From Lytechinus pictus (lineage: Eukaryota), in the NCBI RefSeq assembly GCF_037042905.1, contig NC_087250.1, forward strand, positions 25,174,001 through 25,238,000: DNA of 64,000 bases, in the 5' to 3' direction. The position numbers and the translations under genes are program-made. A model generated the notes under the pieces. The model was not told the DNA's origin and did not search any database. It saw only the letters and a program-made list of their open reading frames with translations. Each line of letters opens with the position of its first letter. Position 1 is the stretch's first letter. This document shows positions 1,086 through 45,011 of the stretch, in pieces.

Positions 1086-2945
1086 TAGCAAAGTTCTGGC
1101 AGTTGTTCCTCTTTTCATCTTTTTTCTTGTCTTTTTTCCACAAATTAAAGTCAACCGGAGGAGTTTTTAACATTATGCGTATCACCATCTCCAAACTTCC
1201 ACTTTGCAGATCCCCTATTTTCTTTGTTGGCGACTACAGTATGTGTAAGATTTCTGGGCAGAATGCGGAAGGGGTGGATGTTGCCACCCCACCCCCAGTC
1301 AAGAGAGTCCATTCCTTGTCTGATGCAGTACAAAACCTCATCTTCAGTTGTGGTCTCTTAACTTTACATCATTCAATTAACATTCCTTATGTTGGGTTGG
1401 CAGTGAAATACATTTTTTTTAATAATACCCTCATTTTGGCAGCTGCTTTTATCATGAGTCATTCAGCTTTAGCAACAAAGCCTAATTTTGAACCCAAAAT
1501 GAAAGTAATTTTCGTTGTGGTTTTTTAGTGTGTACACTTTGTCTCCCATCACAGAAACCGCATAGCGGTTCTGTATAAAGCCTTTTGAGAATTGTGAAAT
1601 GCCATTCTTAGATTTTTGTCCATTTGTTATGTGCCTGTGGATGAGCTCTAAGCATTGAGGTGCCTGTTCAGACTGTAGAAAATTGTTCAAATATTGTGCA
1701 GAAGTTTAGAGTAGAGGAGTTGTTTAGACCAGACCAGTACGTTATACTGCACTTCTGTATTAATAAGCCCTCCTGATTTGTATTACATGTAGATCACTCA
1801 GACAAAAAAGTAACATTAAGGTGTATTGTACAAATATTGTATATAGAACAAAATTATTCCAAAGAAACAAAAAAAAAATTAACCAAAATATACCTTTAGT
1901 ATGCAAATGTTTTAGTTTGAAGAGGTATTGGTTATTAAAACCAGTCTTTGAAATAGGCCTAGTCAGAATTTTGTATCCCTGCCTTTGCAGCCACCATTTA
2001 AAGAAACATTTTCTTTTATTCTTGTGCATTTTAATAATTGGTTGTCCATGTATTTGAATAAATAATAAAAGACGAGACATCCTAGAATAAAATATTTTAA
2101 AAGATCTTTGTTGAGGACATTTACATGTATACAAGGGGCAATGTGTGAATGTGTTTGCTGCTTTAATACAGTTTGCTTCCCCCCCCCCCCCATCCCCCTC
2201 CCCGCACCCCATCCTCCAATCTCTACATCTTTTATGACAATTTACCACAGACATTCCATTCTGCACAAAGCATTACACTTACACTCAGACGTAATGTACA
2301 AAGAAGAACCAGTTTTAGCCAATCATATTCTAGTTTCATTTTACAAACTGATTTCAAACAAAGAAGAGCAATACGTTCTTAAAGAAAAGTATAATATTTT
2401 AAGAAATAATATGTAGCCTTCTTTGTCACAAATATTTCCAGCATCAATCTTTCTCCTTTTTCGGATCATTGTCTGGGTTGTTAATTAAGCTTCTTTGATG
2501 CTAAAAGATAAGAATTTAATTTCTTTTTCTGTTTTTTTTTTTTTTAGGGGGGGATTGGGTGCAATCTAATTACTGAATACTGACTTTCAGTTTCTTCTAA
2601 ACTGGGTTCAAAATTTATAATAAATTGAAATAATGTTTGTCATTTTGAAAGTTTTTTACATATATATACACACGCATACACCATTTGTGCTTGGGGAGAC
2701 TACATTCTATGTGTAAGTCATCTGTGCCTTGGTTGGTTCTTTTAGTATGCCACCAGCCACCGTACTGTTCACATTGCTTCCAGTATTAGTCCTGAAAAGG
2801 TAGTAGTATAGGGTACCCCTGTTCCTGATGGATTCAATAAAAGGTGTAGTATTTACTCTTGATGTTTTCCAATGAAGGTTATGGGCCTGATATTGATAAT
2901 AAAAAACAATATAGCGCCATCTATCTAGACATAATCTATTCCAAG

Positions 2946-3150: not shown

Positions 3151-3157
3151 AATAACC

Positions 3158-3335
3158 CTGGCTTAAGCTCGAGCTGCCTTTCAGCTTTTAGTGCTTTCAA
3201 GGAATTAATCCTGCCGGGTACCCATTCACCTCACCTGGGTTGAGTGCAGCTTAATGTGGGTAAATTTCTTGCTGAAGGAAAACACGCCATGGCTGGGATT
3301 CGAACCCACGTCCCTCTGATTGAAAGATGAGAGTC
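3158..3335 (-). mobile_element. SINE fragment (B box plus core body)
   Basis: Minus strand ggttcgaatcccagccatggcgtg...caagaaatttacccaca...gctgcactcaacccaggtgaggtgaatgggtacccg; same family as 56310-56540. Confidence 0.75.
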
Positions 3336-6153: not shown

Positions 6154-7288
6154 AACCCCCTCTATGCCAATTGCACCAAGGGAGGTTTTTAGTATTATAG
6201 CCAGTGACATTCACTAACAACTTTTATATCCTACATAGAGTAAATCCTGTATAGTGATTGGTTCAAGTAGCATCATGTGACCTAATATATTTCAACTATG
6301 ATGTTGCGTGACGTCAGACCTCGATATATTTTTGGATATATCGAGGTCTGACGTCATTATTTCGCAAAACTGGATATCTAGCTAAACTTTTGTCAGGGTG
6401 AACTTCCCCTGTGACTCCCCTCTATGCCAATTGCACCAAGAGAGGTTTTTAGTATTATAGCCAGTGACATTCACTAACAACTTTTATAATCTTCATTCTT
6501 GAACACCAAGGAGCATTAGTGACAATTTTTAGATTTTCTTCTAATAATATAAAATCTCAGAGGTCCAGTTTACCCCCTGAAATGCTAAAAAAGGAGCCCT
6601 GGAAAAATCCTCATTCATTGCAGTGCTAAAGCTCGTTCAATGTAGCAACTTCCCCCCCCCCCCTAAAAAAATAAAGAAAAAAAATAAAGAAATGTAAATT
6701 TGCTTATGGCTGAAAAGTATGCATATTAATATGTGGTATTTTAGCTACATGTACATGTAACTGAAAAGTCCACCTTAGAAAAAGTTTATCTGAAATTAAA
6801 AAGAGAAAAATCCAACAAGCAAAAAATTAGAATTTCATCAAAATCAGATGTACATGTACAGAAAGTTATTTACTCTTTTATGTTTTGCTGGATTTCACAA
6901 AAGAGTTCGATGTTTATCAGAGTCTGTATGCAAATGAGGGGACAGATGACTTCACTCACTCACTACGAATTAAATTAAACTTTCTCCTCATTGTCCTGTG
7001 AAACAGTTTTAATTTTATTCCTCCTTAAATTAAACCATGGAAATAATACCATTTAAACATTTCATGGTTCAGTCAAGTTGGTCCTCATTGTCAAATCTGT
7101 AAAAAAATGAAATTGAAAGAGAAAGTATCTGTAGACATTTATTATTTCATTGATTTATTAAATCATATCATTCAGTTTTCCCATCCTGTTAAGAATTTGT
7201 CCTTGCTGTGATTATATTTATTTGACCTCCTGCAATTTTCAGCCCTCAATCTAGCCAAAAATTACTTTCATTTCTGTTTTACCTCAAG

Positions 7289-7345
7289 ATGATGAAGAAG
7301 AGAATGTGTGGCATACATGTAGCTCACAAATATTTGAAATTCCTT
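7289..7345 (+). CDS. Candidate 57-nt phase 1-1 cassette exon of the Pur gene
   Basis: tttctgttttacctcaag|AT GAT GAA GAA GAG...CCT T|gtgaga. Open and frame-compatible with exon A; no homology recognised. Confidence 0.3.
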
Positions 7346-7511
7346 GTGAGAAATATACTTTCAAGTTCGGAATATTTTTTTCTGCTTTTTTCTTTTTAAA
7401 GACAAATTAAATTTTTTGTGGAATGCTTGGATCTATTCTCTTTTCATTAAATCCTCCCAGGCTCCCACCCTGTTTCTAGTCTGCTATGCAAACCCTTCAC
7501 TTGAGGTACAG

Positions 7512-8112
7512 TAAGGACAAGTCCACCCCAACAGAAAGTTAATTTGAATAAAAAGAGCAAAATCCAACAAGCATAACATTGAAAATTTCATCAAAATCGG
7601 ATGTAAACTAAGAAAGTCATGACATTTTAAAGTTTCGCTTTATTTCACAAAACAGTTTATATGCACATCCTGGTCGGTATGCAAATGAGGAGACTGATGA
7701 CATCATCCACTCGCTATTTCTTTTGTATTTTATTATATGGAATATGAAATATTCTAATTTTCTCCTCATTGTCAAGTAAAACAACAATTAATTCCTCCCT
7801 GAACATGTGGAATTAGCATTGTTTATATATAGTTCAGTCAAGTTGGTCCCTATTGTCAAATTTCTAAAAAATGAAATATTGTATAATTAAAACAATTAAA
7901 AAAAAACAATAGAAATAGTGAGTGAGGGACATCATCGACTGTCTCATTTGCATGTCACTGAGTTGTGCATATCACTGTTTTGTGAAAAATATTAAAGCGA
8001 TACTTTAAAATTTCATAAAGTCCGATTTTGATGAAATTTTCAGCGTTATGCTAGTTTGATTTTTCTCTGTAATATTCAAATCAACATTTTTCTGTGGTGG
8101 ACTTGACTTTTA
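7512..8112. mobile_element. ~600-bp MITE family A (TTAA target, AGG..CCT ends, Kolobok/T2-like)
   Basis: TIR aggacaagtccacccca / gtggacttgactt; long internal palindromy; several copies in the window. Confidence 0.85.
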
Positions 8113-9136
8113 AGGGTCTGAATAAGTGCAGCCTATCAATGCGTTGGTTATGAAGCCCCCCCCCCCCCCTGAATTGAAACGGCAAGTTCTGTATGTGCTA
8201 GTCTTTGCGTGGAGATCTACTTGTTGATGAAAGTTTCAATCAAGCTCTGTGCCTGGACTCTGGAGACTACCCTGTTCCCCATCTAAAAATATGTTCATAC
8301 CGATATGGAGGGATCGAAATTCTAAAAAAACTTTTCAAAATTACTCATGGCAAATCGGCGTAACAGGAATTTCTTTAAAAATTGTTTTCAGGGGCTACTT
8401 TTGGCAACCTACATGCACTACCTTGCACTATTTGCAATATTGGATAAGCTTTAATGTTGCAGTGAATAGGGATGTTCTGGGGCTCTTTTTTTTTTTACTT
8501 CCCGGGCTCTTTAGAGCATTGGGGGGGGGGGCAAAATACATACAAGATGTTGGGATAGAATAGAATGCATTGTACATTGTTGAGGAATGCAAGTCAATTT
8601 TTGCTGGCTCATAACTTTTGGAAATTATTTGACTTGAGTTGGTGTGAATTTATAATATGAAATAAATTATGAGGCTTTTATGGAGATGTATAATAATCTA
8701 TTCTAGGGGTATGGGGCGGGGGGGGGGGGGAGTTGACAGGTATGAAAGCCCCCTCACAAATGCATTCTTTCTGGTAGTGATCATTGTCATGTAGTAGTCT
8801 GCAGGCACAGACCCTGATAGAAACTTTGATTAATAAGTTGGTCTTCACACGAGACTAGCACATATAAAACTTGCTATTTCAATTCTTCAGTACACAAGAT
8901 ACTGTTGGATGCGTATTCAGACCCCTTACTCAAATGAAGGGTTTGCACAATAACAACGGACATACATGTATTGTACAGTGCTGATTCAAAGTTCTCAATC
9001 AATGAATGAACTTTAGTTACCTGTGGTATTTGTGTTTCCAAGAAAAGAAGTTTCTTTGATTGTGGAGTTTATCCTGGTACTCATTGCAGCGTAAACTTGC
9101 AGCCTTCTTCCATTTCTAATCCCCAATTTAAAATTA

Positions 9137-9610
9137 GGTGGTTTCAGACCGCCTCGAAGTTCGTCAGTTCCAGGTATTCTCTGATCGGGAAATTTACCCC
9201 GATCAGAAAATACCAGGTATTTTGGTAATGTGAAAGCAAACTACGCGTAATTTCCCCGAAAGAAAATACCCGCTAAATAGTAGGTACTTGGTGAAATTAC
9301 GAGAACTTTTTCGGGGATTTTTCCAAGGTCGCAGGTATTTTGGCAATATGAAAGCAATTTACGGGAACTTTTAGCCCAGTGTGTCGTTGGGCGCGGGCGC
9401 CGTGGGTGGCTGCTGGGCTAGTGGTTTTGAATCTTGCGCCTTGCCTGCTTATTAGACCATACTGCGCATGCTCCTAACTTCAGGAATTTATCCCGAAGGG
9501 TGTGTTTCGGGGCGGTGTGAATGCAGGAATAATTAATGGGTATTTTTTAGCCTAAAAATGTTCTCGTAATTTAACGGGGATTCTTGTGATCGAGGCGGTT
9601 TGAAACCGCC
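9137..9610. mobile_element. Non-autonomous DNA transposon, PIF/Harbinger-like
   Basis: TIR ggtggtttcagaccgcctcga / tcgaggcggtttgaaaccgcc, flanked by tta/taa. Confidence 0.75.
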
Positions 9611-9754
9611 TAATGTGGCATTTTGTTAAAAAACACCTTCCATTTTTGAATTCTTCAAATTTCTTCTAGCATGACCTTTCCCTATAACAAATGCTTGTAT
9701 GGGCCAATTTGTTTTATTTTTATTTGTTTATTCATTTTATTCGACTCATTCATG

Positions 9755-9993
9755 CACTGTAAAAACTGCGGTGTTAAAACTGACACCAGTTGGTGTTAAT
9801 AGAGGACCACAACGTGAGGTGTTAAAATTACACCCTAGAGATTAAAAATAACACCAAAGCGTGTAAATGTAACAACCAAAGGTGTTGTAATGACACCTAT
9901 AGGTGTAAAACTAACGCCACCAATTCAACACCGGTGTAAAATAACTGGTGTGGTCCTCCATGTACACCGGTTAACACCACAGTTTTTGCTGTG
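9755..9993. mobile_element. Short MITE
   Basis: cactgtaaaaactgcggtgttaa / ttaacaccacagtttttgctgtg; a related terminus occurs near 4495. Confidence 0.6.
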
Positions 9994-12821
9994 TGTATTT
10001 ATATTTATTTTTGAGTTTCCTTTTCTACAGTATTTTGCTTTACAAGTTTATTTTTTTTCAGATTTACAAAATGGAGAAAAAAGAAAAGTAGGGTTATGAC
10101 TAAGCTGTAGTTATGACTTTTTTTCTGTATAGAAAAGCTATATGTATTGCTAATGAAGTCTATGAGTGAATCTAATAAAGAATAGTGCAGAATTGCAGAT
10201 ATAATTCATTCTCCCTTTATTCTGTTCTTTGAAATTCATGAAGGTATTACTATTGATCTCTGTACTAGTTTGAAAGAAGAATTTCTTGGAAATATTTGTT
10301 TAATTGGCTGGTTGTTCTGTTTCACTCCAACTTTTCCTGTACAAAGTCTTTGTCAGAGCATCATAATTATTTGGTCATTTACGGCTAGTAGCGATTGATT
10401 TGTGCTATTGCCATCAGAGATATGCGCTTGAGGTTTACCAATTCCGAGAAAGTTTGATGACATCATTTTGACTAATGATTAACAAGAGCCCAGTGGCACA
10501 ATGGTCTGTATTCAATCCCACGATATCACTGACCAATCATGACCATTGTTGCATGTGCATTTCGTTGTTAAAGTATACATCCAAAGAATCAAAAGTATTT
10601 TATAATGACTTTATGTGGTCATCATTGTAAAGGGGAAGTATTACTAATCAGATATATAACTTCACTTTTCAAAATAGTGATCAGAGATTGCAGAAATCAG
10701 CTCTCAAAAATGATTTATTTTCATGCCATATTTCTGCCTTCCACCGGTCCTCTTGCGAGCTCCAGCTGATTGACGTCACACAATGAGCAGTGTGCAGCTG
10801 TGCTGACAGCAGCCCATTGGAGACGATCTTTCCAATCAGCGTTTTTTGCTCTTAGAATTGTTTATTCCTCTTAAGATTGGTCTTGTTATATAGATAAAAG
10901 TTTGAATTTACTGAACAGTGAAAAAAGTGCACATTTAACGTATTTTGGTGACCGATATTTAGCTTAGAATTTTTTTTTTTTTTTTCAAGAAATATAGGTG
11001 AATAAACAAAGCATATTTTCACGTAGAAATCACACTTGCGTCACATTAATGTTATAGTCAATATAAAGCATAGACATTCTTCTTTATGACTGAACAAAAA
11101 TTATGAAATTTCATTAAGTAGCAAAGTCAGGAATCACAAAAAAAACACGGCAATATCCATCGCGAAATGACTGAAATTGCAGTTGAATTGCCGAAGCATT
11201 ATTAGGAAACAGCGGCGAGCGGACTTTCTTTCATATATCTTAAAAATGCCATCCTGTTAGGGCGATGGTCTGTGGCCAAATGCGTTGGCCATTGTTTTGT
11301 CATGTGCGAGGACCCTGGTTCGAAACTCGGATTTTTTTTTTCTGGGTATTTTTTTTTTATTCCTTCCCCGTCCCTACCCATCTTTTTTTTCTCTTTTTAT
11401 TTTCTTGTGAAATTCTATTCAGACCTGTATTTATCAAATCTTGCTTCTTAATTGCTGCTTTTGATTTTCAAGTTCTTGATTAGATTATTCTACTCTTATT
11501 TGGGATGGGAGGGGTAGAGTTAAAAGTCAAGTCCACATCAACTAAAAATTATTTGAATAGAGTGATTTCCCTTGTTGTTTTTACTCAAAACAGTCATATA
11601 CACAAAACAATGATATGCAAATTAGAGTTGTCACTCACATCACATTCGTTTCTATTTTTTGTGGCATTTTGTTTTTTATTCTTTGCAGATTTGACGATAG
11701 GAAACTCTTCATCTGATCACAATAGGTTATATTTACGGAACTGTTAAAATAGTAATTATATAAATTTGAATCAAAGTTTTTATGAAATTTCCTGCAATAT
11801 CTTGTTATTTTTCTTTAAATTCAAATGAATTTTTGATTGCGTGGACTTCTCCTTTACTCTTAATGTAGGGAATGCATAGCAAAATTTATCCAGAAACAAA
11901 ATTGTCTTAGAATATGCAAATCAGTAATTGGACACATGTTCACTTTTCTTTCATCCAGGCCACTTCCTCACATCCACCAGGCTTTCAGTCTGATGATGAA
12001 CCATCACACAACATTCACAGTGCTTCACAATAAATATTTCACTTCTGTTCATACATGCAATAAATATTGTGGAAAACAAATAAAAGGCGTACCCATATTC
12101 AAATACCGTTTAAAAGGACAAATATATTATACCTTTCGAGAAAAATCAGCACGTTAAATATCTGATAACAAAACATAATTATGGGGCACTGCAAGAAACT
12201 TATGTTCAATTGCAAATCAAGCGTAAGTCTTAAATTCAAATTTAAGCGTAATAAGGTCGAGTTGCAATCGCAATTCAACTACATGTTTAATCAAAGGACT
12301 TTCCCTTGATTTGGGACGTGTGATTGAGTATAACATTTCTCGCAAAATGCCCTAGTAACATTAAAATTGTTCTTTCGTTTTAAATTGTGTGTTATTATTT
12401 TTGACAAGCTGTATTCCTGTCCGAGTAAAATTTCTTAGTTCTCTCCAAAACTGTGCTCAAAATTGTTTCCAAGATTGATAAAGAAATTTTTTCTTTTGTA
12501 TCATTATCATTCCACAACTTGCAAACCGTAGGTCCTGGAAAGAGTGAAGAAAAAAATGGCTATATCCAAATCATAGTAAAAGGACATGATGGAATCTCCC
12601 AGATTGAGGTAGCAAGCAGAGACCAGAAGTCACCAGAGTTAGCAATTGTGCAGATCTGTGTGTAGAAGAGAGAAAAAAAGAAATAGTTTAAATAATCAAA
12701 TCAAAGTATGAATTTAATTATCGTGATGATTGATGACGTGCGGTGGCATGTAATTCCCGGTCAACAACAAATGATAGTAGGTTTAGACACCTGAAAAGTT
12801 CCACTCAGAACACTGGTGCTC

Positions 12822-12978
12822 TACCTCAAGTGATGTTTGTGTAGGCCCCACTCCACTTCACTACCGCTACACTACCGTACATGTACGCCACACCTACCCG
12901 GGTAAGTGTGTAGCGTAGTGTAGGCTGTAGCAGTACTCCAGTAGTGAAGTGGAGACTACACGAACATCACTTGAGGTA
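12822..12978. mobile_element. Palindromic MITE
   Basis: tacctcaagtgatgtttgtgtag / ctacacgaacatcacttgaggta. Confidence 0.75.
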
Positions 12979-13101
12979 CGGTGCTCTCTGAGTCTCTGTG
13001 TCATTACAAAGATTGCATTTATCTTCATTGTTGAAGGCATTACGCATACATATATGCAGCAACACTCTAATCAGAAAGAAACACCAGACTCTAATTTTGG
13101 C

Positions 13102-13717
13102 CCACCCAAGGGTTCATTACATGCCGCCGCGCACAGAAAATTCAAGCAATAGAAGTCGTGGACCCAAGAAGTGAGATCCCAGCACGCGCGACCCACTAGT
13201 TAGAAATCCACTGCCAAACGCGGTTCGTGGTTAGTATACTAATACTAACCTCGCAATACGTACTAGTAGTATACTAATACTAACCTCGCAATACGTGTGA
13301 GTGATTTTGGCCAGGAATCAGGGTAATCACTGCTGAAAATTTGTCTGGCTTCATGACATCGGCATCATGGTGATATAATTCTGTGTATAATAAAAACTTA
13401 AACATTCCTCTGAAACAGCAGATTTTCAGCCATGGTCCATACCACTCAGTGCTCCTAAATAATTTAATTGCCTGCCTGAGTCCTGACCAGTTTTAGAAAT
13501 CTGAAGAAAAAATCTGCTGGAATTGTGCCACTCACACGTATTAAGTATACTAACCCCGCACCACGAACCGCGTTTGGCAGTGGATTTCTAACTAGTGGGT
13601 CGCGCGTGCTTAGCCTGGAGGCGTCTGGGATCTCACTTCTTGGGTCCACAACACACGACTTCTATGGCTTGATTTTTCTGTGCGTGGCGGCATGTAATGA
13701 ACCCTTGCCTTGGGTGG
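13102..13717. mobile_element. Long-TIR non-autonomous element
   Basis: About 130-bp inverted arms starting ccacccaagggttcattacatgccgcc and ending ggcggcatgtaatgaacccttg...ttgggtgg. Confidence 0.75.
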
Positions 13718-14420
13718 AATTGTACAAAAACATTATTTCTAAAATAAAAACTTTTTAATTTTAATAGTAGTTATGCCAAAATGCATGATTCTAAACTTAT
13801 ATCAGATCTGTATCTGTCATCTGACCTGAATGCATCGTCAGAACAAGTACAGTTTCCAAACATGCTTACCTTGACTTTTGACTGGATCAAACAGCGTAGC
13901 CTGCAACATGCATCGGGAGCAAGTGAATGGGACCGTGCAGCTTGGAGTTTTTCAATAGTTAGTAGAGCAACACAACGAAGACTGTCGAGTGGACAAAATC
14001 GATCTTTCCAGTTCACAATTCAATAAAAAACGGGCAAAATAACACAGTTCTGGTTCCCTTATAGTCTGAAGTTGTCGAAAACAGAATTCGGATGTCACAT
14101 ATTACATGAAGAAAACGGTAAATTCGGAAGATATTGAAGAGGTCAGTAAGGTGATTCAGTGTATTATGCACAGAGGGATGATGAGCTCGATTATTGTGTG
14201 ACGTCATTATTCTCGACTGTTTTCACTGCGTGAACTGTCGGTCTGGGGGGCGGCTGGGGGGCTTAGAATGGTCTCTAATAATTTCATTTCTTGCATTTCC
14301 ACGACATCGATAAGACTTTTTAGTGACATATTTGTGTATAAAAAGACAAGACCTTTCCATTCATATATAATTTGTCTATAATCATCACTTTCGTGAATTT
14401 TCTTTGTGTGTATACTTTAA

Positions 14421-14984
14421 AGGGATGGTCCGGGCTGAAAATATTAATATCTTAATACATAGAGTAGAATTCACTGAGCAAAATGCTGAAAATTTCATAA
14501 TAAAGTTATTGAAGTTTAAAGTTTAGCAATATTTTGTGAAAACAGTCGTCATGAATATTCATTAGATGGGCTGATGATGTCACATCTCCACTTTCCGTTT
14601 TCTTATGTTATTACATAAAATCATATTTTTTTCATTATTTCATACTTGTGTGAATAATATGTCTCTTTTATAATGAAATAAGTTGCAGCAATAAATATCT
14701 AATGCACTAAATCAATTGTCAATTCAATTTTTCTAGTACTTGGAGGAAAAAATTTGAATGAACCTAATTTCATATAATAAAATACAAAAGAACAAGTGGA
14801 GATGTGACATCATCAGCCCACCTAATGAATATTCATGACGACTGTTTTCACAAAATATTGCTAAACTTTAAAATTCAATAACTTTGTTATTTGTTATCCG
14901 ATTTTGATGAAATTTTCGGCATTTTGCTCAGTGAATTCTACTCTATTTGTTAAGCTATAAATACTTTCAGCCCGGACCATCCCT
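14421..14984. mobile_element. Near-palindromic MITE family B (TTAA target, Kolobok-like)
   Basis: ttaa|agggatggtccgggctgaaa...tttcagcccggaccatccct|ttaa. Confidence 0.9.
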
Positions 14985-16549
14985 TTAAGATCAATGTCTA
15001 ACCAATCAGATCTAATCTTTCATATTTGTGATTGATTACCATGCTTCTGTGAAGCATGGGCTGTTCTTCTGTGATGGTAGTGGTGACATATATCATGAAT
15101 GAAAAGGAATTCTGCTTTGTCCTTCCTGCTCAATACCCTTCATGTTTTGGGAATTCATTTGCTTTTTCATTTTAAAATAGGGGGGTGGGGTTAGCAGAGT
15201 TCAGGGTTCCCAGCCCATCAGGGAAAATTATGTTACTTTTTTCTAGTCAGGGAAAAATCGGGGAATTTGATTTTTTTTAATACAGTACCTCAAATTAGGG
15301 AAAAATGCCTCAAATGATGGAAAAATCTGGGAATTTTGATCAGCCCCAAAGTCGAAAGCAAGGTAGTCAGACTCTGTTATATTTTGTTGCATATCAAAGT
15401 CATTGAATGCCTGGTTATGGTGGTACTAATTAGTTTTACATTATTGTTTTTATACTGAAAATACATATAATTTACTGCAACAACATGCGAAACTGGCGAT
15501 GGGTTTAAATATTTATCAGGGAATTTCTAAACTTCATCAGGGAAAAATCAGGGAATTTCGTTTTCTTGAAAAGCTGGGTACATTGGAGTAGTTGTTCTAT
15601 TCCATGCATTATTGCATGTGGGCCTATGCTTGAGAGATCAAAAAATAGGTTGCAATTTTAAATAACAATGTTTTTCAAACCAGCTTTTAACAAATATACA
15701 GGGGTTTTTCCACCCAAAGTACTGGTAATTTCACTATTTAAGCTTGACTACTTGACATTGTGTCAAAGTAACTTTATTTTTTTAGTAGAAAAATCTGAGT
15801 TACATGTAAATCAATGAAGAAATAGTTGGTATTTTATCAACTGTGAAGAATTAAATCTTGAGTTTTTTAATTATACAAGAAATACAATGAATTAAATACA
15901 TTCATTGCATTCACATTTGTTATGATCAGGAGTAACCTTTAAAGTCAATGCCTAGTGAATAATATTAAAGTCAGACCTAGTTTACATTGTAATCCGCATA
16001 AAGGCTTTTACTGAGAAAGGGAAAGCGTTCCTCCACGTAGTGACTTGCATTGACGGAACACGGTTTTATGGTACTGGAGGAAAAGGGCACCAGGAACTCA
16101 ACAATACGGCCGAAACTTCAGCTGACTGAATGTCACAGCGAGAGAGCGATGGAGAAGGAGAAAGTGAGAGAATTTGAGATCAGGCACAATTACAGTGTAT
16201 GTAGTGGAAAGTGGGTATTACAATCAAAATTTAAATTACAGTATCTTTTACATTCGAATCTGCAAAACATTTTTAATATTTGGCCTGATCTTGGAGTCGT
16301 AAAACCTTTTTTTGGGGGGCGGGTATTTAGAGAGATAAGGGCAAGATGTTTGAGATGAAGAAAGAGAGAGAGATACACCTGTAGATGCAAGATGAGAGAA
16401 GTCAAGAAGGGGTGGGGAACATAGAAATACACAGAGAGAGGGTGAAAGAAGGGGGTATTTTGGAATATGAGAGGTCTCTCATCTTCCAAAATACCCCCCC
16501 CCCCCCTTCTCTTTCTTTCCATCCCTCAACTACCTGTAGTATATAGAGG

Positions 16550-17370
16550 GAGAAAGGAGGAGAAAGAGAATGAGATAGATGAAGAGAGAGTGAGATAGTA
16601 TACATGTACAGGTCTGTACAAGATGAGAGAGGTGTTGGGTAGGGGGATAAGAATGAGAGAGGGGGAGAGGTATTTTGGAAGATGTGAGGGAGTTTGAGGA
16701 ATAAGGAGGAGAAAAAGAAGTTAAAAGAGAATGAGATAGATGAAGAGAGCGAGATAGTATACATGTACCTGTACAAGATGAGAGAGGTGTTGGATAGGGG
16801 GATAAGAATGAGAGAGAGGGGGGAGAGGTATTTTGGAAGATGCGAGGGAGTTTGAGGGATAAGGAGGAGAAAAAGAAGTTGCAAGAGAATGAGATAGATG
16901 AAGAGAGAGCGAGATAGTATACATGTACCTGTGCAAGATGAGAGAGGTGTTGGATAGGGGGATAAGAATGAGAGAGGGGGAGAGGTATTTTGGAAGATGC
17001 GAGGAAGTTTGAAGGATAAGGAGGAGAAAGAGAAGTTGCAAGAGAATGAGAGAGATGAAGAGAGCGAGATAGTATACATGTACCTGTGCAAGATGAGAGA
17101 GGTGTTGGATAGGGGGATAAGAATGAGAGAGGGGGGAGAGGTATTTTGGAAGATGCGAGGGAGTTTGAGGGATAAGGAGGAGAAAGAGAAGTTGCAAGAG
17201 AATGAGAGAGATGAAGAGAGCGAGATAGTATACATGTACCTGTGCAAGATGAGAGAGGTGTTGGATAGGGGGATAAGAATGAGAGAGGGGGGGAGGTACT
17301 TTGGAGGATGCGAGGGAGTTTGAGGGATAAGGAGGAGAAAAAGAAGTTGCAAGAGAATGAGAGAGAGCGA
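16550..17370 (+). repeat. Tandem repeat, ~157-bp purine-rich unit, about 5 copies
   Basis: gagatagtatacatgtac recurs at about 16592, 16751, 16911, 17066 and 17222. Confidence 0.95.
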
Positions 17371-18811
17371 GATGGAGCGTTCAGCTCGTAGCTGAAGGGA
17401 AAGGAGGGTAAGGGAGAGTTCAGTGCATCATTTATCTCAAGATAGCTGAGCAAGAAGGTCATTTAGAGTTCACCCGCTCTCTCCCTCTCTCTCCACCCTA
17501 CACTGTACATAGGGAATTGTATTTAGATGGGCTCGCATCCCTTACACAATGCTGTAGTCTCAGTGATGAACGAACATGAATAATTCTCCTCTGTCTTTGA
17601 CAACATGGTCCTTATCTTGCCTGAGCCGACTGACGTTTCATCGTAGTTTCGTCTTGTAGATATACCCCCTCTCCCATTCATTGCTGAATAATTTAATCTT
17701 TAAAATAGAAATAAGAGTAAGGCCCTGCAGCAATGTTACATTCATCATCGTCTGCTTGGTTATTATGTACATACTAGTCCTTTGGAAAAGATAGCAATTT
17801 TGCTTTCAGATCCCTTTTCAAAGAATTCACTTTTAAGTTTTTAATGGATCTCTCTTGATAGATTGAGGCGGGATGCGTAAATACTGATTTTCTGACATAA
17901 ACTGGAAGCTAGTGCGCCGTCAATATGATTTTCCCATCTTAAATGCTCTTTTTTTCCCAAGTCTTATCACAAGATGTGATGATCTGGACACTCAAACTTG
18001 CAAATCAGTTTTCATTTTCTTTTGTTTTGTACCTTGTGATTAATAGCGAGAGGTTTATATAAAAAGATGCAATGTTTATTCTTCTACTTTCTCAGAAATA
18101 GCCACTCTTTAGTTGCAATGTCAAGAAGTTTTGAATGCAGTGTATGTTAAAAAAACTTACCTTATTAGAAAGATTTCTTTTGTTTTATCTTTCTGGAACC
18201 TATTGAGTGTATTACATAGCAACTCAATAGGCTCTCGAAAGATAAAACAAAATAATATTTATTTATATATATATATATATATATTTTATACTCCACTCTT
18301 GTTTTTTTTTGTTATTCAGCCCAACAGCAAAAGGCAAACACCCTCCTACCTGTTCATCTCTCCCTTTCTTTCTCCTCTCCCCCCTCCTTGCCCCCCCCCC
18401 CCCATCCCAATCTACTTTTTTAATGCTTTGAACTCTTCCACATGTCATAAACAGAGCTGTTCCATTCTCATCCTTTTGTATAAGAATGTCCTTCCTTCTC
18501 TATGTTCTCATTCAGATCCATTATTAGCAGACCTTTTTATAAAGCAAGGTTATTTCAGGTCAGGGAGAGCTGATCAGAGGCTTTCATACCCACCCAGTCC
18601 CCCAAATAACCTGGAAATTTAAAACAATTGGTTTTAATAATAGGCTACAACATTTTTTTGCAATTGATTTCATGCATTGGCATGTCACAACTGCCTGAGG
18701 TTTGGCAAAGAGTTGGCACCTTTTTACACTAAGATATTAAAGAGGAAGAAGAAAAATTGAATACAGGTACATATAAAGGGGATAGAAAGTACATGTACAT
18801 GATATAGGCCT

Positions 18812-19330
18812 TAAAGTTCAAATCCACCCCAGGAAAACGTTGAATTTAATAAACGGAGAAAAATCAAACTAGCATAACGCTGAAAATTTCATCCAAATCG
18901 GATGTGAAATAAGAAAGTTATGGCATTTTAAAGTATCGCTTATTTTTCACAAAACAGTGATGCACAACTCAGTGACATGCAAATGAGTCAGTCGATGATG
19001 TCCATCACTCACTATTTCTTTTGTTTTTTATTGTTTGCATCATACAATAATTTTTACAGATTTGACAATAAGCACCAACTTGACTGAACCATACAGTATC
19101 AAACAATGCTAATTCCACAGGTTCAGGGAGGAATTAATTATTATTTCACTTGACAATGAGGAGAAAATTAGAATATTTCATAATTCATATAATGAAATAC
19201 AAAATAAATAGTGAGTGGATGATGTCATCAGTCTCCTAATCTGCATACCAACCAGGATGTGCAGATAACTGTTTTGTGAAATTAAGCAAACTTTAAAATG
19301 TCATAACTTTCTTATTTTACATCCGATTTG
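18812..19330. mobile_element. MITE family A copy, right end lost
   Basis: Similar to 21103-21701 up to acatccgatt. Confidence 0.8.
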
Positions 19331-19899
19331 CAGGAAAAAAATGTATGTGATATAACTCTGTGATAAAAGTGAAGAAAATGAAATGTGTAATCTGGAAAGC
19401 AAAAAAAAATCACCCAGATATTCTGTGTACAGACCTATGGAATCACGACGCTTCTCACACAACGAGACGTCATGGTCACGAGGCCGGTGAAAAGCACAAT
19501 AAAGCCTGTTTTCTAAGCCCGATTATTGGAGCTGTTCTTAAGCAAAATACTCAGCTGTTAAGCGGTGAAAATGCATAAAGCTTACATTGCTATAGTCTAT
19601 AAACGTTCGATTGGTATGATTTTTAATTTTCATTTGTGGGTCCGGTCTGGGTCTTTAATGCCGTATGTACATGTAGTCGTGATGTTTATAGGTATGTAGT
19701 AGACATAGTGGTTGCCTTGTAGGCCTATTCCCAGTTTATAAAATTGGATTTCAAAAGGCACCTATTTCAAGATTTCACGTTTGCATTTGAAAGATGTGTT
19801 CATGAGACAATTCGTATCTCTAGCACATCCAAGCTATGAAAATGAAAGCCTTGTTGATGCTTCCGTTTTGATATTGTCAAATGACTGCATAATGCTGTA

Positions 19900-20085
19900 A
19901 TAAAGCGCTGCATACTATTACCCCGGCTACATGTTTAGCATAACTACCCTGAACAGACCTCGACTATTCAAGGAATCACTTCCTACCGGATACCCACACC
20001 TGGGTGGAGAGTGGCAAATGTAGATAAATGCATTGCCAAAGGACGTGAATGCTACGTTGGGATTCGAACCCCATGTATCTTGTCC
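19900..20085 (-). mobile_element. SINE fragment
   Basis: Minus strand ggttcgaatccc B box followed by ttggcaatgcatttatctacatttgccactctccacccaggtg. Confidence 0.6.
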
Positions 20086-20100
20086 TTGTGGTTCAAAGTC

Positions 20101-20263
20101 CTGGGGAGTGTTTCATCAACATTTTCATCCGACAAGTTGTCAGATCTGACATCTTTCTCTGATGTTGATTGGCTGAGAGGTACTGTTACTATGGTAACTG
20201 TCGGATAAAATGGGACTTGTCGGATAAAACGTCCGACAAGTCCTTTCATGAAACGCTCCCCAG
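20101..20263. mobile_element. Short MITE
   Basis: ctggggagtgtttcatcaa / ttcatgaaacgctccccag. Confidence 0.7.
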
Positions 20264-21102
20264 AAGCCTTTCCACTGGGCCACAGCACAGTCTGGTATTT
20301 ATGATGCTGTGAAGTTTGCCATTAGCATGATAGACCATGTAAAAAGCACTCTCTCTGTCATGTGAGTCCAAAAAAACTTGACACCTCACAAATTCCCATT
20401 TTTAAGAAAAAAATATGTCATGAATGCGTAATCATTTTCCAAAAATAATTTGATACCATATTGTTAACGCTTAATAGATGATCAGGAGGTATTATTTGCA
20501 GTGATGTAAATTAGGATTTACGCCAAAGTAAGGCATGACTGCAATGAATGAATTCAAATGTCAATGATGTCATGATCCTACAACAGATGCATTAAAATCC
20601 ATTTCAAAACATTTTTTTCAGTAATTTACACATTATAATTGTGCAATAATCACTTTAAGTATCAATTCTCAAGTTCATTTCATTGAAAAGGGATTTGCCG
20701 ATATGTTTACTAACTCAAGTACGATTATTGCATCATTGGCATCTGGGGTTCAGTCATTGGGGATTTGTGAGATGTCAAGGTGTTTCTTTTTTACTCACAA
20801 GTTATAGCCATTCAGATTGTGTTCATCACAGAGTGTGGGGAGTTTATTTGAGGTCAAGTACATGTACATCTACATGTATGCCCACATGTACATGTATGCC
20901 TCATGTACATGTAGGCGTGTGATTGTTGACCACTAAGTGATCTCCACTGCATAGCATTGCCCAGGGATGTAGCGAGGCCGGCATCTCCAAGCCGCCTTCT
21001 CCCATACCCTTTGAACATGTGACTCGGGCCGAGGCCAAGGCCGGCATGCCTGGCATTGCCACTTGCCAAGTTTATAATAATTATCACACTTTAAATTAGT
21101 TA

Positions 21103-21701
21103 AAGGACAAGTCCACCCTAACAAAAAGCTGATTTGAATAAAAAGAGAAAAATCCAACGTGCATTGCACTGAAAATTTCATCAAAATCGGATGGAAAATA
21201 AGAAAGTTGTGATATTTTAAAGTTTCGCTTAATTTCACAGAATAGTTGTATGCACATCCTTGTCGGTATGCAAATGAGGAGACTGATGACATCATCCACT
21301 CACTATTTCTTTTGTATTTTTTTATTATATGAAATACTGAATGTTCTAATTTTCACCTTTTTGTCATGTGAAACAAATATTAATTCGTTCCTGAACCTGT
21401 GGAAGTAACATTATTGTAATACTCTATGGGTCATTCAAGTTGGCCCTTGTTGTCAAATCTGCAAAAAAATGAAAAATTGTATAATTCAAACAAAAAACAA
21501 AAGAAATAGTGAGTGAGTGACATCGACTCTCTCATTTTCATGTCAGTTGTGCATATAACTGTTTTGTGAAAAATAAGCGAAACTTTAAAATGCCATAACT
21601 TTCCTATTTTACATCCGATTTTGATGAAATTATCAGCATAATGCTTGTTTGATTTTTCTCTATTTATTCAAATCAATATTTTTCTGGGGTGGACTTGACC
21701 T
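21103..21701. mobile_element. MITE family A, full copy
   Basis: ttaa|aggacaagtccaccc...ggggtggacttgacct|ttaa. Confidence 0.9.
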
Positions 21702-22051
21702 TTAATTTTACCCTCTGCCTGCCTACTGTATGCCTGTATGAAGTACACTCAATACTATAAAAAAAGGTCAAGTGTACAATTATCATGTTTTGTTATGTCT
21801 ATTTTGTATGTACAGTGTGTAATTCTTGACTTCAATTTTGATTGGATAAAAAAAATGGACTTGTTATTATTTTGTTATTACTAACGACGTTTTAATACAT
21901 GTACTAGTATTATCTTCATCATTTTTATTTTTAGTACTATCATTAATATTGATATTATTATTATTGATATTTTCATAATCATAATCATTATTTTATTATT
22001 ATCATCATTATTCATTATTATCATCATTCTTATTGCTATTTATCATTACAG

Positions 22052-22155
22052 CTGGGGTGCAGGAATTGGCCACAAAAACCCTCCATATTCAGAGTAAGAG
22101 GTACTACCTTGATGTCAAACAGAACAGGAGAGGGCGCTTTCTAAAGATAGCAGAG
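22052..22155 (+). CDS. PURA: Pur-alpha/beta family protein, internal coding exon A (first half of PUR repeat I)
   Basis: Encodes [34 protein letters not shown], recognisable as Pur-alpha (QELAxK...[15 protein letters not shown]). Acceptor ttacag|, donor GAG|gtaagc (phase 0). Starts in phase 1, so an upstream exon is required. The symbol denotes the family; PURA vs PURB orthology is not resolved. Confidence 0.95.
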
Positions 22156-22207
22156 GTAAGCGAGGTGCGTTCAACCCATTCATCTTCATCTTCATATCTT
22201 TTCTTCA

Positions 22208-22833
22208 AGGTCAAGTCCACCCCCAGAAAATTGTTGATTTGAATCGATAAGAGAAAATTCAAACAAGCATAACGCTGAAAATCTCATCACAATCGGATGA
22301 AAAATAAGTTGACAGTTTTAAGTTTTGCTTATTTTTCACAATTATATGCACATCTCAGTGACATGCAAATGAGGTAGTTGATGATGTCCCTCACGCACTA
22401 TTTCTTTCGTTTTTTATTGTTTGAATTATACAATATTTTATTTTTTACAGATTTGACAATAAGGACCAACTTGTCTTGACTTAACCCATAAACTGTTGAT
22501 ATAATGCTAATTCCATATGTTCAGGGAGGAATAAAATTTAGTTTTACACGACAATGAGGTGAAAATTAGAATATTTCATATTCCATGATAAAATACAAAA
22601 GAAATAGTGAGTGGGTGAGGTCATCAGTCTGCTCATTTGCCTGCCGACCAGGATGTGCATATATATGTAATTGTTTTGTGAAAGTTATTAAAGCGAAACT
22701 TTAAAATGTCATATTAGTACTTTCTTAATATTTTACATCCGATATTGATTAGATTTTTCAGTGTTATGCTTGTTGCATTTTTCTCCTTTTATTCATATCA
22801 TTATCAACTTTTTCTTGGGGTGGATTTTTCCTT
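22208..22833. mobile_element. MITE family A copy
   Basis: aggtcaagtccaccccc...ggggtggatttttcct. Confidence 0.85.
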
Positions 22834-24329
22834 TGATTAATATTTTTATTCTCTTCACTCTAAATGTCAGAGATTGAACAGAAATCCAATTGGATTGTTA
22901 TAAGGGAAGAAAACGACAAATCCCAAATGAGATTGAAACACAGTACATGTATGCCAGAGCCAGAGTATTATGAGGAGCAACAACTCATATCGTGTTCCTT
23001 GCTTTTCAATGTGTTTGTTGTCAATACAGTACCGAAACGATGATGCCGAACATTCCTTTAGAAACAAATTTGGGGGGATTTCAGTGTCTTTTATACCATG
23101 TTTCAGCAATGCATGATGAAAATATCTACAACAGATTTTATTTTCTTTAGCATGGTCAGCCCCCCCCCCTCCCACTCACTTTCAAAACCATTCCGCAGAA
23201 TACCGCCAAATAATTGCTATGTTGTATTTTTAGGGTCTGCCAGAAAAGCGGTAGTATTCACATACACATCACCCAAAAGCAATGCATTATCTACAGGTGC
23301 ACTGGTGTAATGATGAAATGATTGATGTAACGATAACACCATTGTATTGAACAACACCCCCAACATCTTTAAGCACAACATGTACATAAAGTAGAATAAA
23401 AAATTTCAATTTCAAAACCCATTTTCAAATTATTTCAAGTTTCCACGTGTCAATTGAAGTGCATAGATATAACATATAGATTTGAGGTGGAAAAAATCCC
23501 TCAATACAGGATCGACTTTCAATCTCTGATATTTAGAATGCTATCATATTTTCTTGTCATTTTCATACATGGCGAAAGATTTTTATTTCTATAATTGTTT
23601 CACTTGTTTTGTTTCATGATTAGCACTTTTTTCATTTCACTGTATTCCCACAAAGATGAGAAAATAAAATATGCGTCCTGGCTACTTTTTTTTAGCTTAC
23701 TGACCAAAATTTGCTACATTGTATTGCAATACTGCATGTACAGGAACATTGGACTCTATGGGAATTTTAGGGGCTCTTTTTCAGTTTTCCAGCTCCTGAG
23801 GGAATTTTGGGGAAGCCCCGAGCGGGGCCGAGCCCCTTGTAATTTTTTGTTCTGTGGCCCTTTTTTCCCCTGATTTTCATCGCAGTGGATTCAGCAGTAA
23901 TTTCTTTGTCTACAATTTTCAGTATTCATAATATGCAGCATTTTTTCAAGCAGTGGAGCTGTCTTTCTATATTAAAAGAATAATAAATTATCGTCGTTAT
24001 CCCTTCATTTGCAAATTTAGTTATCTACGCTTTTCTCTGTAACTATTATTCATACATATATATACTGTAGTGCACTATACAACATTTCTGTTGACTTTCT
24101 GTATTCATCCTTCATCCTTCATTTTCTTACTCAGGAATTTTTCCTAATTCCTAGGGTTTTTCAAGTCAAAGTACCATTTTGTTGTACATGTATCATTTCC
24201 TTATCGCTAATTAAGTTTGCATATTGATATAATATATATATCACTCTCTTCCAGGGTTAGATCTGAAATTCTAATTTTAGAATACATGTAAATTGTAAAT
24301 GCCTGGGTATATATCAAAGATGATCTTAA

Positions 24330-24726: not shown

Positions 24727-24947
24727 TTAAGTATTATTGGCGATTGTTTTACCATCCAATCCGCCCACTCTCCTAGAAATAGAAATAGAATCATGGGACG
24801 TGATTTTACTTTCATATTCATACGTGTATAAATGCATCATTGGGTAGAGTGATTCTACAGGGAGAATGTGAAATCAAATCGCGATGTACGTGTAAATGTA
24901 CATGTTGTACATTTAAAGTTTGAAAGTTTATAAAGCATTAAACTTAA

Positions 24948-25551
24948 AGGTCAAGTCCACCCCAGGAAAATGCTGACTTGAATAAATAGAGAAAAATCAA
25001 ACTAGCATAGAGCTGAAAATTTCATCAAAATCGGATGTAAAACAAGAAAGTTATGACATTTTAAAGTTTCACTTATTTTTCACAAAACAGTTCAATGTGC
25101 AACTCAGCGATATGCAAATGAGAGAGTCGATGATATCCATCACTCACTATTTCTTTTGTTTTTTATTGTTTGAATAATACAATATCTCAAATTGTACAGA
25201 TTTGACAATAAGGACCAACTTAACTTAACCATGAACTGTTAAAATAATGGTAATTGCACATGTTCAGGGAGAAAATAAACTTTGTTTCATTTGACAAGGA
25301 GGAGAAAATTATAATATTTCATATTTCATATAATAAAATACAAAATAAATAGTGAGTGGGTGATGTCATCAGTCTGCCAATTTGCACACCGACCAAAATG
25401 TGCATATCACTGTTTTGTGAAATTAAGCGAAACTTTAAAATGTCATAACTTTCTTATTTTACATCCGATTTTGATGAAATTTTAAGTGTTATGCTTGTTG
25501 GATTTTTCTCTTTTTATTCAAATCATTTTGTTGTTGGGGTGGACTTGTCCT
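24948..25551. mobile_element. MITE family A, full copy
   Basis: ttaa|aggtcaagtccacccca...ggggtggacttgtcct|tta. Confidence 0.9.
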
Positions 25552-40926: not shown

Positions 40927-41148
40927 GTCGGGGGCAGAGGAGGAAAGAGCCGGCTCACGTTGGGTATGTCCGCCGCTGCCGAGTTCCGGAACCACTTGAC
41001 GGACTTCAGCGAGCATTACGCACAGCTTGGGCCCGCCAGCCACGATAACCCGCCAGACGACGGACGACTGAAAAGTGAAGTGATCGTTAAAGAGAACAGA
41101 CGGTATTACCTTGACCTCAAAGAAAACTCACGAGGGCGCTTTTTAAAA
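40927..41148 (+). CDS. PURA: Pur family coding exon B (end of repeat I, start of repeat II)
   Basis: Encodes [36 protein letters not shown]...[27 protein letters not shown]. Polypyrimidine tract plus ccag| acceptor, AAA|gtaagc donor, 222 nt, phase 0-0. Confidence 0.96.
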
Positions 41149-42267: not shown

Positions 42268-42388
42268 GTGTCACAAACAGTGAACAGAGGAGGTCCCAGA
42301 ACACAGATCGCCGTGCCTGCCCAGGGTCTTGTTGAATTCAAAAACGCCCTCACAGAGTTACTAGATGAATTTGGAGTGGATAGCACAG
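42268..42388 (+). CDS. PURA: Pur family coding exon C (end of repeat II); absent from the ORF track
   Basis: Manual translation [40 protein letters not shown]. Acceptor ctctag|, donor CAG|gtaaaa, phase 0-1. Confidence 0.95.
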
Positions 42389-43058: not shown

Positions 43059-43174
43059 AGGAAGGTCAAGGAAACGTCCCAGAGAGTAGATCATTTAGGG
43101 TTGAAAATAAAAATTTCTACTTTGACATCGGACAGAACTTCCGTGGAGTTTACATGAGAATCAGTGAAGTACAG
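43059..43174 (+). CDS. PURA: Pur family coding exon D (repeat III)
   Basis: Encodes (E)[38 protein letters not shown]. Acceptor ttacag| in phase 1 matches exon C; donor CAG|gttaga in phase 0. Confidence 0.93.
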
Positions 43175-44870: not shown

Positions 44871-45011
44871 CCTCGAAATCAATTCCGCACATCCGTCACG
44901 ATTCCGGAGCGATCCTGGGCCCGTTTCCGAGACATCTTCACAGAGTACGTCGACAGGATGAAAGAGATTAGAGCACCCGAAGGAGGAGGTCAAGGGGACG
45001 AGGGAGATTAG
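44871..45011 (+). CDS. PURA: Pur family terminal coding exon E with stop; absent from the ORF track
   Basis: Manual translation PRNQFRTSVTIPERSWARFRDIFTEYVDRMKEIRAPEGGGQGDEGD* (TAG 45009-45011). Pyrimidine tract plus cccag| acceptor. Confidence 0.94.
   Translation, partial: PRNQFRTSVTIPERSWARFRDIFTEYVDRMKEIRAPEGGGQGDEGD

Follow-up and report, generated by a model that had tools for sequence, protein, structure and literature searches.

The proposed 10-kb RNA hairpin in a Lytechinus pictus Pur intron is very probably a chance chain of short complementary words

The 10-kb RNA hairpin proposed for a Pur intron of Lytechinus pictus is very probably not a real feature but a chance chain of complementary words within an ordinary, repeat-filled intron. 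Here, the window denotes the whole 64-kb stretch of DNA that was analysed, and its features are collected in Table 1. In our reading, twelve short complementary words (7-11 bp) would have been picked, in nested order, from the thousands that any AT-rich 10-kb sequence offers. We infer that the helices do not form in vivo. Notable folding of the intron RNA, if there is any, would proceed via transposon-derived inverted repeats, with duplexes of about -115 to -250 kcal/mol.

Table 1. Features of the window, with positions counted from its first letter
Feature	Position	Strand	Basis or remark
Candidate alternative first coding exon, ATG..MDSIK + G	2828..2843	+	homology only
Claimed 10-kb hairpin, 12 nested helices of 7-11 bp	11885..21850	+	judged very probably a chance chain
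Perfect helices of the claimed hairpin	11897/21833 (8 bp); 12555/20803 (10); 12636/20710 (7); 13939/19828 (8); 16011/18087 (9); 16049/17917 (8); 16191/17499 (9)	+	
Helices with one or two G:U pairs	11885/21842; 13914/19858; 15588/18687; 15903/18132; 15984/18112	+	
Near-perfect palindrome, 601 nt, strongest real hairpin of the region	13107..13707		single copy in the window
Palindromic MITE-like element, second family	14417..14988		terminal repeat TTAAAGGGATGGTCCGGGCTGAAA
Purine-rich minisatellite, unit 155-158 bp, 5.1 copies	16564..17366		TRF score 1376, 94% matches
Copy of ~600-bp MITE-like family, 3' end truncated	18811..19340		terminal repeat TTAAAG.TCAA.TCCACCCC
Full copy of ~600-bp MITE-like family, ~350 nt upstream of exon A	21100..21705		self-arms, termini
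Exon A, 104 nt, first strands of PUR repeat I	22052..22155	+	Pfam PurA, tblastn
Copy of ~600-bp MITE-like family, ~50 nt downstream of exon A	22204..22834		inverted match to 21100-21705
Exon B, end of PUR repeat I and start of repeat II	40927..41148	+	Pfam, PDB, tblastn
Exon C	42268..42388	+	tblastn to P0002 and P0001; splice sites read
Exon D	43059..43174	+	tblastn to P0002 and P0001; splice sites read
Exon E, followed by TAG 45009-45011	44871..45008	+	tblastn to P0002 and P0001; splice sites read

The helices themselves are present as the first-pass annotation had described them. All 12 are found at their coordinates (105 bp in total) and nest without mutual conflict. Seven are Watson-Crick perfect, among them every helix that had been called perfect. 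The tandem array lies in the apical loop, i.e., inside the innermost helix (TRF period 155), and the acceptor AG of exon A (22050-22051) follows 201 nt after position 21850, in line with the distance of about 200 nt given before. Arms of at least 10 nt are found in 3 of the 12 helices only. A comparison of coordinates reveals that all 24 arms lie outside the real inverted repeats. The existence and conflict-free nesting of the helices are what one would expect if distant parts of the Pur pre-mRNA paired as a functional hairpin, which would shorten the effective intron and leave some 200 nt between an upstream site and the exon A acceptor. We nevertheless give this explanation almost no credence, given how the pairing compares with chance.

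Under the same energy scoring, the proposed structure amounts to -64.0 kcal/mol over 9966 nt, while every one of 25 dinucleotide shuffles provides a better nested chain of perfect 8-mers (-129 to -183 kcal/mol, mean -152, from 31-41 helices). Nested chains of 36-44 perfect 8-mers are possible in shuffles. The first-pass annotation had itself declared that pairing not significant against shuffles would refute the hairpin, and this is what is observed: the helix chain as well as its composites are matched or beaten by shuffled sequence. The real segment does hold more perfect 8-mer stems than its dinucleotide shuffles (2648 vs. 1370 +/- 49), but this raw excess is due to transposon copies and self-complementary microsatellites, which the helices do not use.

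We also masked the repeats and counted perfect long-range matches (more than 500 nt apart) in comparison to 100 shuffles. For k=10, 47 matches are found vs. 35.7 +/- 8.5, a count reached by 10 of the 100 shuffles, and for k=12 the numbers are 3 vs. 2.6. That is, from 10 nt upwards, long-range complementary words in the masked sequence stay at the level of shuffles. For k=7-8, a surplus of 13-15% above the shuffles remains (k=8: 538 vs. 470 +/- 28, reached by 0/100 shuffles). The masked excess observed when no distance limit is applied (k=12: 47.5 vs. 4.8) was traced to (TA)n, (ACATGT)n and short-range hairpins and was thus discarded.

Considered arm by arm, the chosen pairs appear more favourable. 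For 5 of the 12 helices, neither arm has an equally good partner elsewhere in the segment. When composites are compared with the alternatives of their own arm, their energy is reached by 0-2 of 300 shuffled partners and by 0-9 of about 655-660 other real windows; the outer composite (9+8 bp), which speaks for a functional hairpin, is unmatched among 659 other windows. We rejected such per-arm competitor counts and partner shuffles as tests, since the pairs had been selected beforehand. We read the advantage of the chosen pairs as an effect of picking among about 10^8 possibilities, which is not in itself a disproof.

The energies of the individual helices are low (-4.8 to -13.6 kcal/mol), such that 0/12 reach -15 kcal/mol. 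Once the cost of opening local structure is paid (windows of +/-300 nt), the net values are marginal and range from -7.7 to +2.4 kcal/mol per helix, still before the cost of loop closure. With helices numbered from the outermost inwards, the best composites are helices 9+10 (-27.2 kcal/mol), 5+6 (-24.3) and 1+2 (-14.0). Long-range window pairs of -27.2 kcal/mol or lower occur on average 6.75 times per shuffle (range 1-12, 20 shuffles), and those of -24.3 or lower 22.8 times (14-36, 20 shuffles). Plain local folding provides about -0.3 kcal/mol per nt, i.e., -999 for the first 3000 nt of the segment, and with dangles off -1515 kcal/mol for 5000 nt. In addition, far stronger transposon duplexes compete with the helices. 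The strongest real long-range duplex, 18811-18961 with 21555-21705 (151 nt at 88%, -178 kcal/mol), cannot coexist with helices 3-6 for topological reasons.

Functional intronic pairings of similar span are known elsewhere, which favours the hairpin in principle. PCCR-type structures have arms of at least 10 nt, hybridisation energies of -15 kcal/mol or lower and a location in conserved intronic regions, with covariation in the best cases (PMC8052449), and ATE1 and Dscam1 are reported cases of long-range intronic pairing (PMC7797038, PMC12962786). The proposal resembles these systems in that a role in splicing is envisaged for intronic segments that are complementary across distances of up to about 10 kb, and its arms of 7-11 nt fall near the lower end of the PCCR-type class (PMC8052449). 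Unlike in that class, no single helix here reaches -15 kcal/mol, the complementarity does not go beyond composition-matched random sequence, and the set as a whole fails to beat shuffles.

With regard to the surrounding gene, the DNA under the claimed hairpin appears, from its sequence, to lie inside a + strand Pur-alpha/beta-like gene, within a long intron of 19 kb or more, a setting that would also suit a functional hairpin. The first-pass annotation had concluded from the presence of the hairpin that the region is transcribed as Pur intron; the intron is supported by gene structure, while the argument from the hairpin falls away. Exon A is a true downstream PUR-coding exon with its acceptor on the + strand. 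It matches Pfam PurA (1.1e-15, profile positions 2-38), is 97% identical to the Diadema protein P0001 (tblastn), has its donor GT at 22156-22157 and is preceded by in-frame stops without an ATG. At position 22086, 20/20 RNA reads come from one strand. A second donor after 22164 gives a 'SEV' isoform, and L. variegatus has isoforms both with and without SEV. Exon B matches Pfam PurA (1.5e-29) and PDB 3k44 (1.5e-35), and exons B-E are 100% identical to the public L. pictus model P0002.

The candidate first exon at 2828-2843 is the counterpart of the first exon of L. variegatus isoform X3 (MDSIT|AG...), and its donor G|GT at 2844 follows MDSIK in the correct phase. Read depth in its bin is 0.05-0.14, i.e., there are no RNA reads. 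Given exon A and this upstream MDSIK exon, positions 2844-22051 would form one intron, a status that rests on a 16-nt exon recognised by homology; the 15 of 138 joints listed include no splice junction in support of it. When the 64-kb window was searched for MSDRDS, the conserved first exon, no match was found. Echinoderm Pur-alpha/Pur-beta proteins (L. variegatus XP_041466386-88, S. purpuratus XP_030848548-49, Diadema) are the same protein as encoded here, and L. variegatus shares with the window both the SEV alternative donor and the MDSI(T/K)-type alternative first exon. P0002 differs from the gene in the window in that exon A and the alternative first exon are missing; its start lies at 36972, within a (GAT)n microsatellite. 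The missing exon A and the microsatellite start seem to reflect a poor gene model, not biology.

Pfam searches of 8 and then 104 ORFs gave the Pur exons as the sole accepted matches; among the 104, which are the ORFs of 55 aa or more from 1082-24224, the exon A ORF alone passes the cut-off. Sub-threshold rows for HOOK_N_NuMA, PIN_5 and Toxin_BN_H are far under the cut-offs and were treated as chance. Rfam (gathering thresholds) and ARAGORN gave no match over the window.

Next to gene structure, we considered RNA reads. Coverage on the + strand had been put forward as a check of the hairpin, and it is borne out in part: cover biased to the + strand spans about 10.2-15.6 kb, i.e., part of the left arm, while nothing is seen at 15.6-18.3 kb. 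Over the right arm (18.3-21.6 kb) the cover is dominated by repeats and unbiased by strand. Continuous + strand RNA spanning both arms is thus not shown by the reads, which further weighs against a functional hairpin. The biased stretch raises the question whether the region is more than an intron, harbouring an independent + strand transcript at about 10.2-15.6 kb or an alternative first exon at 16130-16163. The summed bin depth over 10254-14255 favours the + over the opposite strand in X19 (35.7 vs. 21.2), X20 (41.0 vs. 8.5) and X21 (24.8 vs. 17.1). X1 contigs cover 10640-14421 (depth 86-162, 0-4 differences), and RNA depth is then about 0 across 15590-18257, although holes and dips in read cover are not to be taken as findings. 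The bias is only partial, even though the library is fully stranded at exon A, and 71-74% of the aligned reads continue into sequence that does not match, as expected of repeats. The exon candidate encodes MSQRESDGEGE + A|GTGAGA in phase with exon A, a peptide that resembles the conserved N-terminus MSDRES.. and '..QEGDET|GVQEL' of S. purpuratus; on the other hand, GA-rich DNA readily encodes E/R/S/G, and the bin is without reads. We therefore hold either version to be unlikely, if with some small chance, and keep to an ordinary intron with a chance chain of words.

Real complementarity is found in the cargo of this intron, which comprises two palindromic MITE-like families, a 601-nt palindrome, a 155-bp minisatellite and self-complementary microsatellites. 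The palindrome at 13107-13707 pairs through arms of 51 nt (100%) and 54 nt (94%), and its RNA MFE of -338.4 compares with -167.5 +/- 7.8 for shuffles (z -21.8). The element at 14417-14988 is complementary to itself over 97 nt (97%) and 87 nt (91%), and a related copy lies at 43240-43455. The element ends read TTAAAGG...CCTTTAA, in which TTAA or TA may be either a target-site duplication or a portion of the terminal repeat. The assignment as MITE-like follows from shared terminal repeats, a length of 500-630 bp, at least 7 copies per 64 kb and overlapping ORFs without a Pfam domain.

Inverted-repeat transposon pairs in introns are known to form dsRNA of the IRAlu type, and inverted repeats flanking an exon are a known setting that promotes back-splicing. 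Like such pairs, the real complementarity here consists of inverted or palindromic MITE-like copies, with one pair around exon A. Unlike them, the claimed helices lie outside these repeats, and circular RNA, editing and skipping were not observed. We thus also weighed real intron dsRNA from transposon-derived inverted repeats, including the pair around exon A, which could affect inclusion, back-splicing and editing. The z value of the palindrome and MITE self-arms of 85-97% complementarity (136 nt at 85% within 21100-21705) agree with it, as does the pair enclosing exon A, for which the best match of 21100-21705 to 22204-22834 is inverted (77% over 650 nt, vs. 68% direct) and holds arms of 90% complementarity (21249-21325/22585-22661, 77 nt, duplex -114 kcal/mol). 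Yet every element is itself palindromic and would self-fold first, and with at least 7 copies scattered over the 64-kb window the flanking of the exon may be chance. No exon A back-splice or skip joint is among the 15 of 138 joints listed.

Editing, another check proposed along with the hairpin, also yields no support: A>G changes are not in excess (44-47 places vs. 56-67 for T>C), and no difference row falls in the helix arms among the 40 of 459 listed. Overall, we regard a contribution of such transposon dsRNA as quite unlikely. Very improbable is the specific case that the MITE-like pair bracketing exon A loops the exon out and thereby adjusts how often the first strands of PUR repeat I are included or makes a small circular RNA, or, as a weaker variant, that 15984-16019/18087-18121 (-27.2 kcal/mol) is a real local element. 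The preferred reading remains a chance chain of words.

If true, the hairpin would have been a rare invertebrate case of a multi-helix 10-kb intron clamp on splice-site choice. Since it is indistinguishable from chance, its main value is that of a calibration point: AT-rich eukaryotic DNA will always offer nested chains of 8-10 bp helices across 10 kb, and such chains are uninformative alone. As by-products, the true inverted repeats of this intron are now located, and a corrected exon map is obtained for the Pur-alpha/beta-like gene of L. pictus.

All 12 nested helices that the first-pass annotation had chained into a 10-kb hairpin (11885-21850, numbered here from the outside inwards) are present in the sequence. 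They sum to 105 base pairs; seven are perfect Watson-Crick helices (11897/21833, 12555/20803, 12636/20710, 13939/19828, 16011/18087, 16049/17917, 16191/17499) and five depend on one or two G:U pairs. The surroundings had also been described correctly. That is, the innermost helix encloses a tandem array (TRF period 155, 5.1 copies, 94% matches, 16564-17366; copy spacings 155-158), and since the last helix ends at 21850 and the acceptor AG at 22050-22051 belongs to a genuine exon (exon A, first strands of PUR repeat I in a Pur-alpha/beta-like gene), the structure does close about 200 nt upstream of that acceptor.

As a real structure, the hairpin is not borne out: it is a chance chain of helices, failing both the shuffle test and the single-helix energies. 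In this AT-rich eukaryotic DNA (GC about 0.33-0.43 here), the 9966-nt segment holds 2648 perfect complementary 8-mer pairs vs 1370 +/- 49 in dinucleotide shuffles, and the shuffles already permit nested chains of 36-44 perfect 8-mers, i.e., three times the proposed twelve. The whole structure reaches -64.0 kcal/mol (Turner model) and is outscored by 25/25 shuffles, for which simple chaining of perfect 8-mers produces 31-41 helices worth -129 to -183 kcal/mol (mean -152). The outermost of these frequently lies within about 100 nt of the segment ends. Plain local folding is worth about -0.3 kcal/mol for each nucleotide (-999 over the first 3000 nt, -1515 over 5000 nt), and the 210 paired nucleotides show no gain over it. 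Individual helices range from -4.8 to -13.6 kcal/mol; once local structure has been opened (+/-300-nt windows), each helix nets -7.7 to +2.4 kcal/mol, a figure that leaves out the cost of closing loops that are hundreds to thousands of nucleotides long.

Neighbouring helices scored together reach -27.2 (9+10), -24.3 (5+6) and -14.0 kcal/mol (1+2). For its own arm, each composite outscores both shuffled partners and the remaining windows of the real sequence, and for 5/12 helices neither arm is paired as well by any other site in the segment. Such partner specificity is to be expected when pairs are picked out of about 10^8 candidates. Among 20 shuffles, long-range pairs of at most -27.2 kcal/mol occur on average 6.75 times per shuffle (range 1-12), those of at most -24.3 on average 22.8 times (range 14-36). 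Functional long-range intronic pairings do exist, and the human catalogue by Kalmykova et al. (PMC8052449) jointly requires arms no shorter than 10 nt, a hybridisation energy of at most -15 kcal/mol, conserved intronic location and a span of at most 10 kb; covariation E is below 5% for only 3204 of its pairs. Here, 0/12 single helices reach -15 kcal/mol, and the set fails the shuffle test.

Among indexed sequencing runs, none recorded as RNA was found to contain the stretch. RNA was assessed over 2250-22249 in three ribo-depleted, paired, raw-read runs of the same species label (X19, X20, X21) and one contig set (X1). At the exon A variant 22086 the first mate lies on the - strand in 20/20 reads, so the libraries are stranded and + strand RNA corresponds to first mates on -. 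Support for transcription from the + strand is confined to part of the left arm: over 10254-14255 the summed bin depths of + strand RNA vs the other strand are 35.7 vs 21.2 (X19), 41.0 vs 8.5 (X20) and 24.8 vs 17.1 (X21). The right arm (18258-21592) shows low depth without strand bias, except for a repeat (19592-20258) whose depth is about 100-fold on either strand. Over 15590-18257, which takes in the apex, the array and the inner five helices on both sides, depth is essentially zero in all four data sets with covered flanks, a kind of hole that by the method's own caveat is not to be taken as a finding; a filter effect, an indel haplotype or the boundary of a transcript near 15.6 kb may lie behind it. 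On these reads, one continuous RNA with both arms is neither demonstrated nor contradicted. Of the placed reads, 71-74% continue into dissimilar sequence, a mark of repeat copies located elsewhere, and no splice junction of the Pur gene is among the joints listed (15 of 138). There is no A>G excess among places of change (44-47 A>G vs 56-67 T>C). The tRNA-like head (GCGATAGCTCAGTCGGTAGAGCG...GGTTCGATTCCC) of a SINE-like repeat (2951-3139; no call there from ARAGORN or Rfam) has a depth of 567-767 on the strand meaning + RNA, with 113-161 read ends stacked at 2951/2952; since hundreds of these reads run on into other sequence, most derive from other copies.

With regard to the gene, ORFs 40915-41310 and 42866-43231 match Pfam PurA (1.5e-29, 1.1e-12) and the Drosophila Pur-alpha structure 3k44 (1.5e-35). 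'Pur-alpha-like [Lytechinus pictus]' (P0002, a public protein model) matches the exon peptide at 100% identity, and the Diadema antillarum protein does so at 95%. The exon map was derived from tblastn and splice sites read directly, and reading phases agree in all five exons.

Coordinates of the Pur exons and of the palindromic elements
Feature	Position	Strand	Basis or properties
Exon A	22052-22155	+	tblastn, splice sites
Exon B	40927-41148	+	tblastn, splice sites
Exon C	42268-42388	+	tblastn, splice sites
Exon D	43059-43174	+	tblastn, splice sites
Exon E	44871-45008, then TAG	+	tblastn, splice sites
Near-perfect palindrome, 601 nt	13107-13707		arms 51 nt at 100%, 54 nt at 94%; single copy in window
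Palindromic element	14417-14988		arms at 97% and 91%
Family of ~600 bp, copy	18811-19340
Family of ~600 bp, copy	21100-21705
Family of ~600 bp, copy	22204-22834
Family of ~600 bp, further copy	7513-8113
Family of ~600 bp, further copy	24944-25554
Family of ~600 bp, further copy	33540-34138
Family of ~600 bp, further copy	60778-61276

Exon A encodes 34 residues (Pfam PurA 1.1e-15) and has stops but no ATG in frame upstream; no other Pfam match above cut-off was found among 104 ORFs with a length of 55 aa or more (1082-24224), nor any match with Rfam or ARAGORN. Its further donor nine bases downstream of the first accounts for the two isoform types ('AEVSEVGG' and 'AEVGG') that L. variegatus and S. 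purpuratus annotations contain. Exon A is part of all models from L. variegatus, S. purpuratus and Diadema but absent from P0002, which starts at 36972 (segment 36972-37103) within a (GAT)n microsatellite, includes a second odd exon (40056-40130) and is probably a weak gene model. Microsatellites of this type in Pur introns (37047-38007, 320 units; 44391-44710, about 30 units) yield long poly-Asp/His/Ile open frames able to mislead gene models.

Isoforms in L. variegatus start either with MSDRDSTEDQPQGQ, joined to AGVQEL, or with an 11-letter segment. At 2828-2844, ATG GAT TCA ATA AAA G followed by GT encodes MDSIK plus one base in a phase that fits exon A, which makes 2844-22051 a putative intron for one isoform. 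The conserved MSDRDS exon was searched for in the window and not found; the main-isoform intron would be longer. The region is therefore probably intronic whichever first exon is used: the assignment to a pur intron appears right from gene structure, independent of the hairpin, which lends it no support. An exon-like match at 16130-16163 (ATG..MSQRESDGEGE plus A, then GTGAGA; phase matching exon A) is similar to the conserved Pur N-terminus (MSDRES..) as well as to S. purpuratus ..QEGDET before GVQEL; given its GA-rich DNA and zero RNA reads, it is probably due to chance.

The real sequence does exceed its shuffles (best chain -310 kcal/mol; 108 window pairs of at most -27.2), due to repeats that the proposed structure does not use: by coordinates, 0/24 helix arms overlap palindromic or MITE-like elements. 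The strongest long-range duplex (18811-18961 x 21555-21705; 151 nt, 88%, -178 kcal/mol) crosses helices 3-6 and thus cannot coexist with them. A big excess in a first masked k-mer count was traced to (TA)n, (ACATGT)n and short-range hairpins. With these masked too, and the count restricted to pairs separated by more than 500 nt, real vs shuffled matches are 538 vs 470 +/- 28 (k=8; reached by 0/100 shuffles), 47 vs 35.7 +/- 8.5 (k=10; 10/100), 13 vs 9.8 (k=11; 24/100) and 3 vs 2.6 (k=12; 41/100). We infer that the residual 13-15% at k=7-8 stems from higher-order composition.

The 601-nt palindrome folds at -338 kcal/mol vs -167 +/- 8 for shuffles (z -21.8) and is a candidate foldback transposon or hairpin-RNA locus; RNA depth in its bins is about 3-12. 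Copies of the ~600-bp family share terminal repeats starting with TTAAAGGTCAAGTCCACCCC, their ORFs gave no Pfam domain, and we label them MITE-like. At 14566, in a MITE stem arm, A>G occurs in 64-100% of RNA reads vs 17/2307 of X1 contig depth; with first mates on both strands, a paralogous copy or variant is more likely than editing. Two MITE-like copies (21100-21705, 22204-22834) flank the 104-nt exon A on both sides, their best match being inverted (77% over 650 nt; 77-nt core at 90%, -114 kcal/mol). This bracketing pair is a lead of low probability. Transposon-derived intronic dsRNA is a familiar class, to which the real inverted repeats here belong, and nothing in this region is novel.
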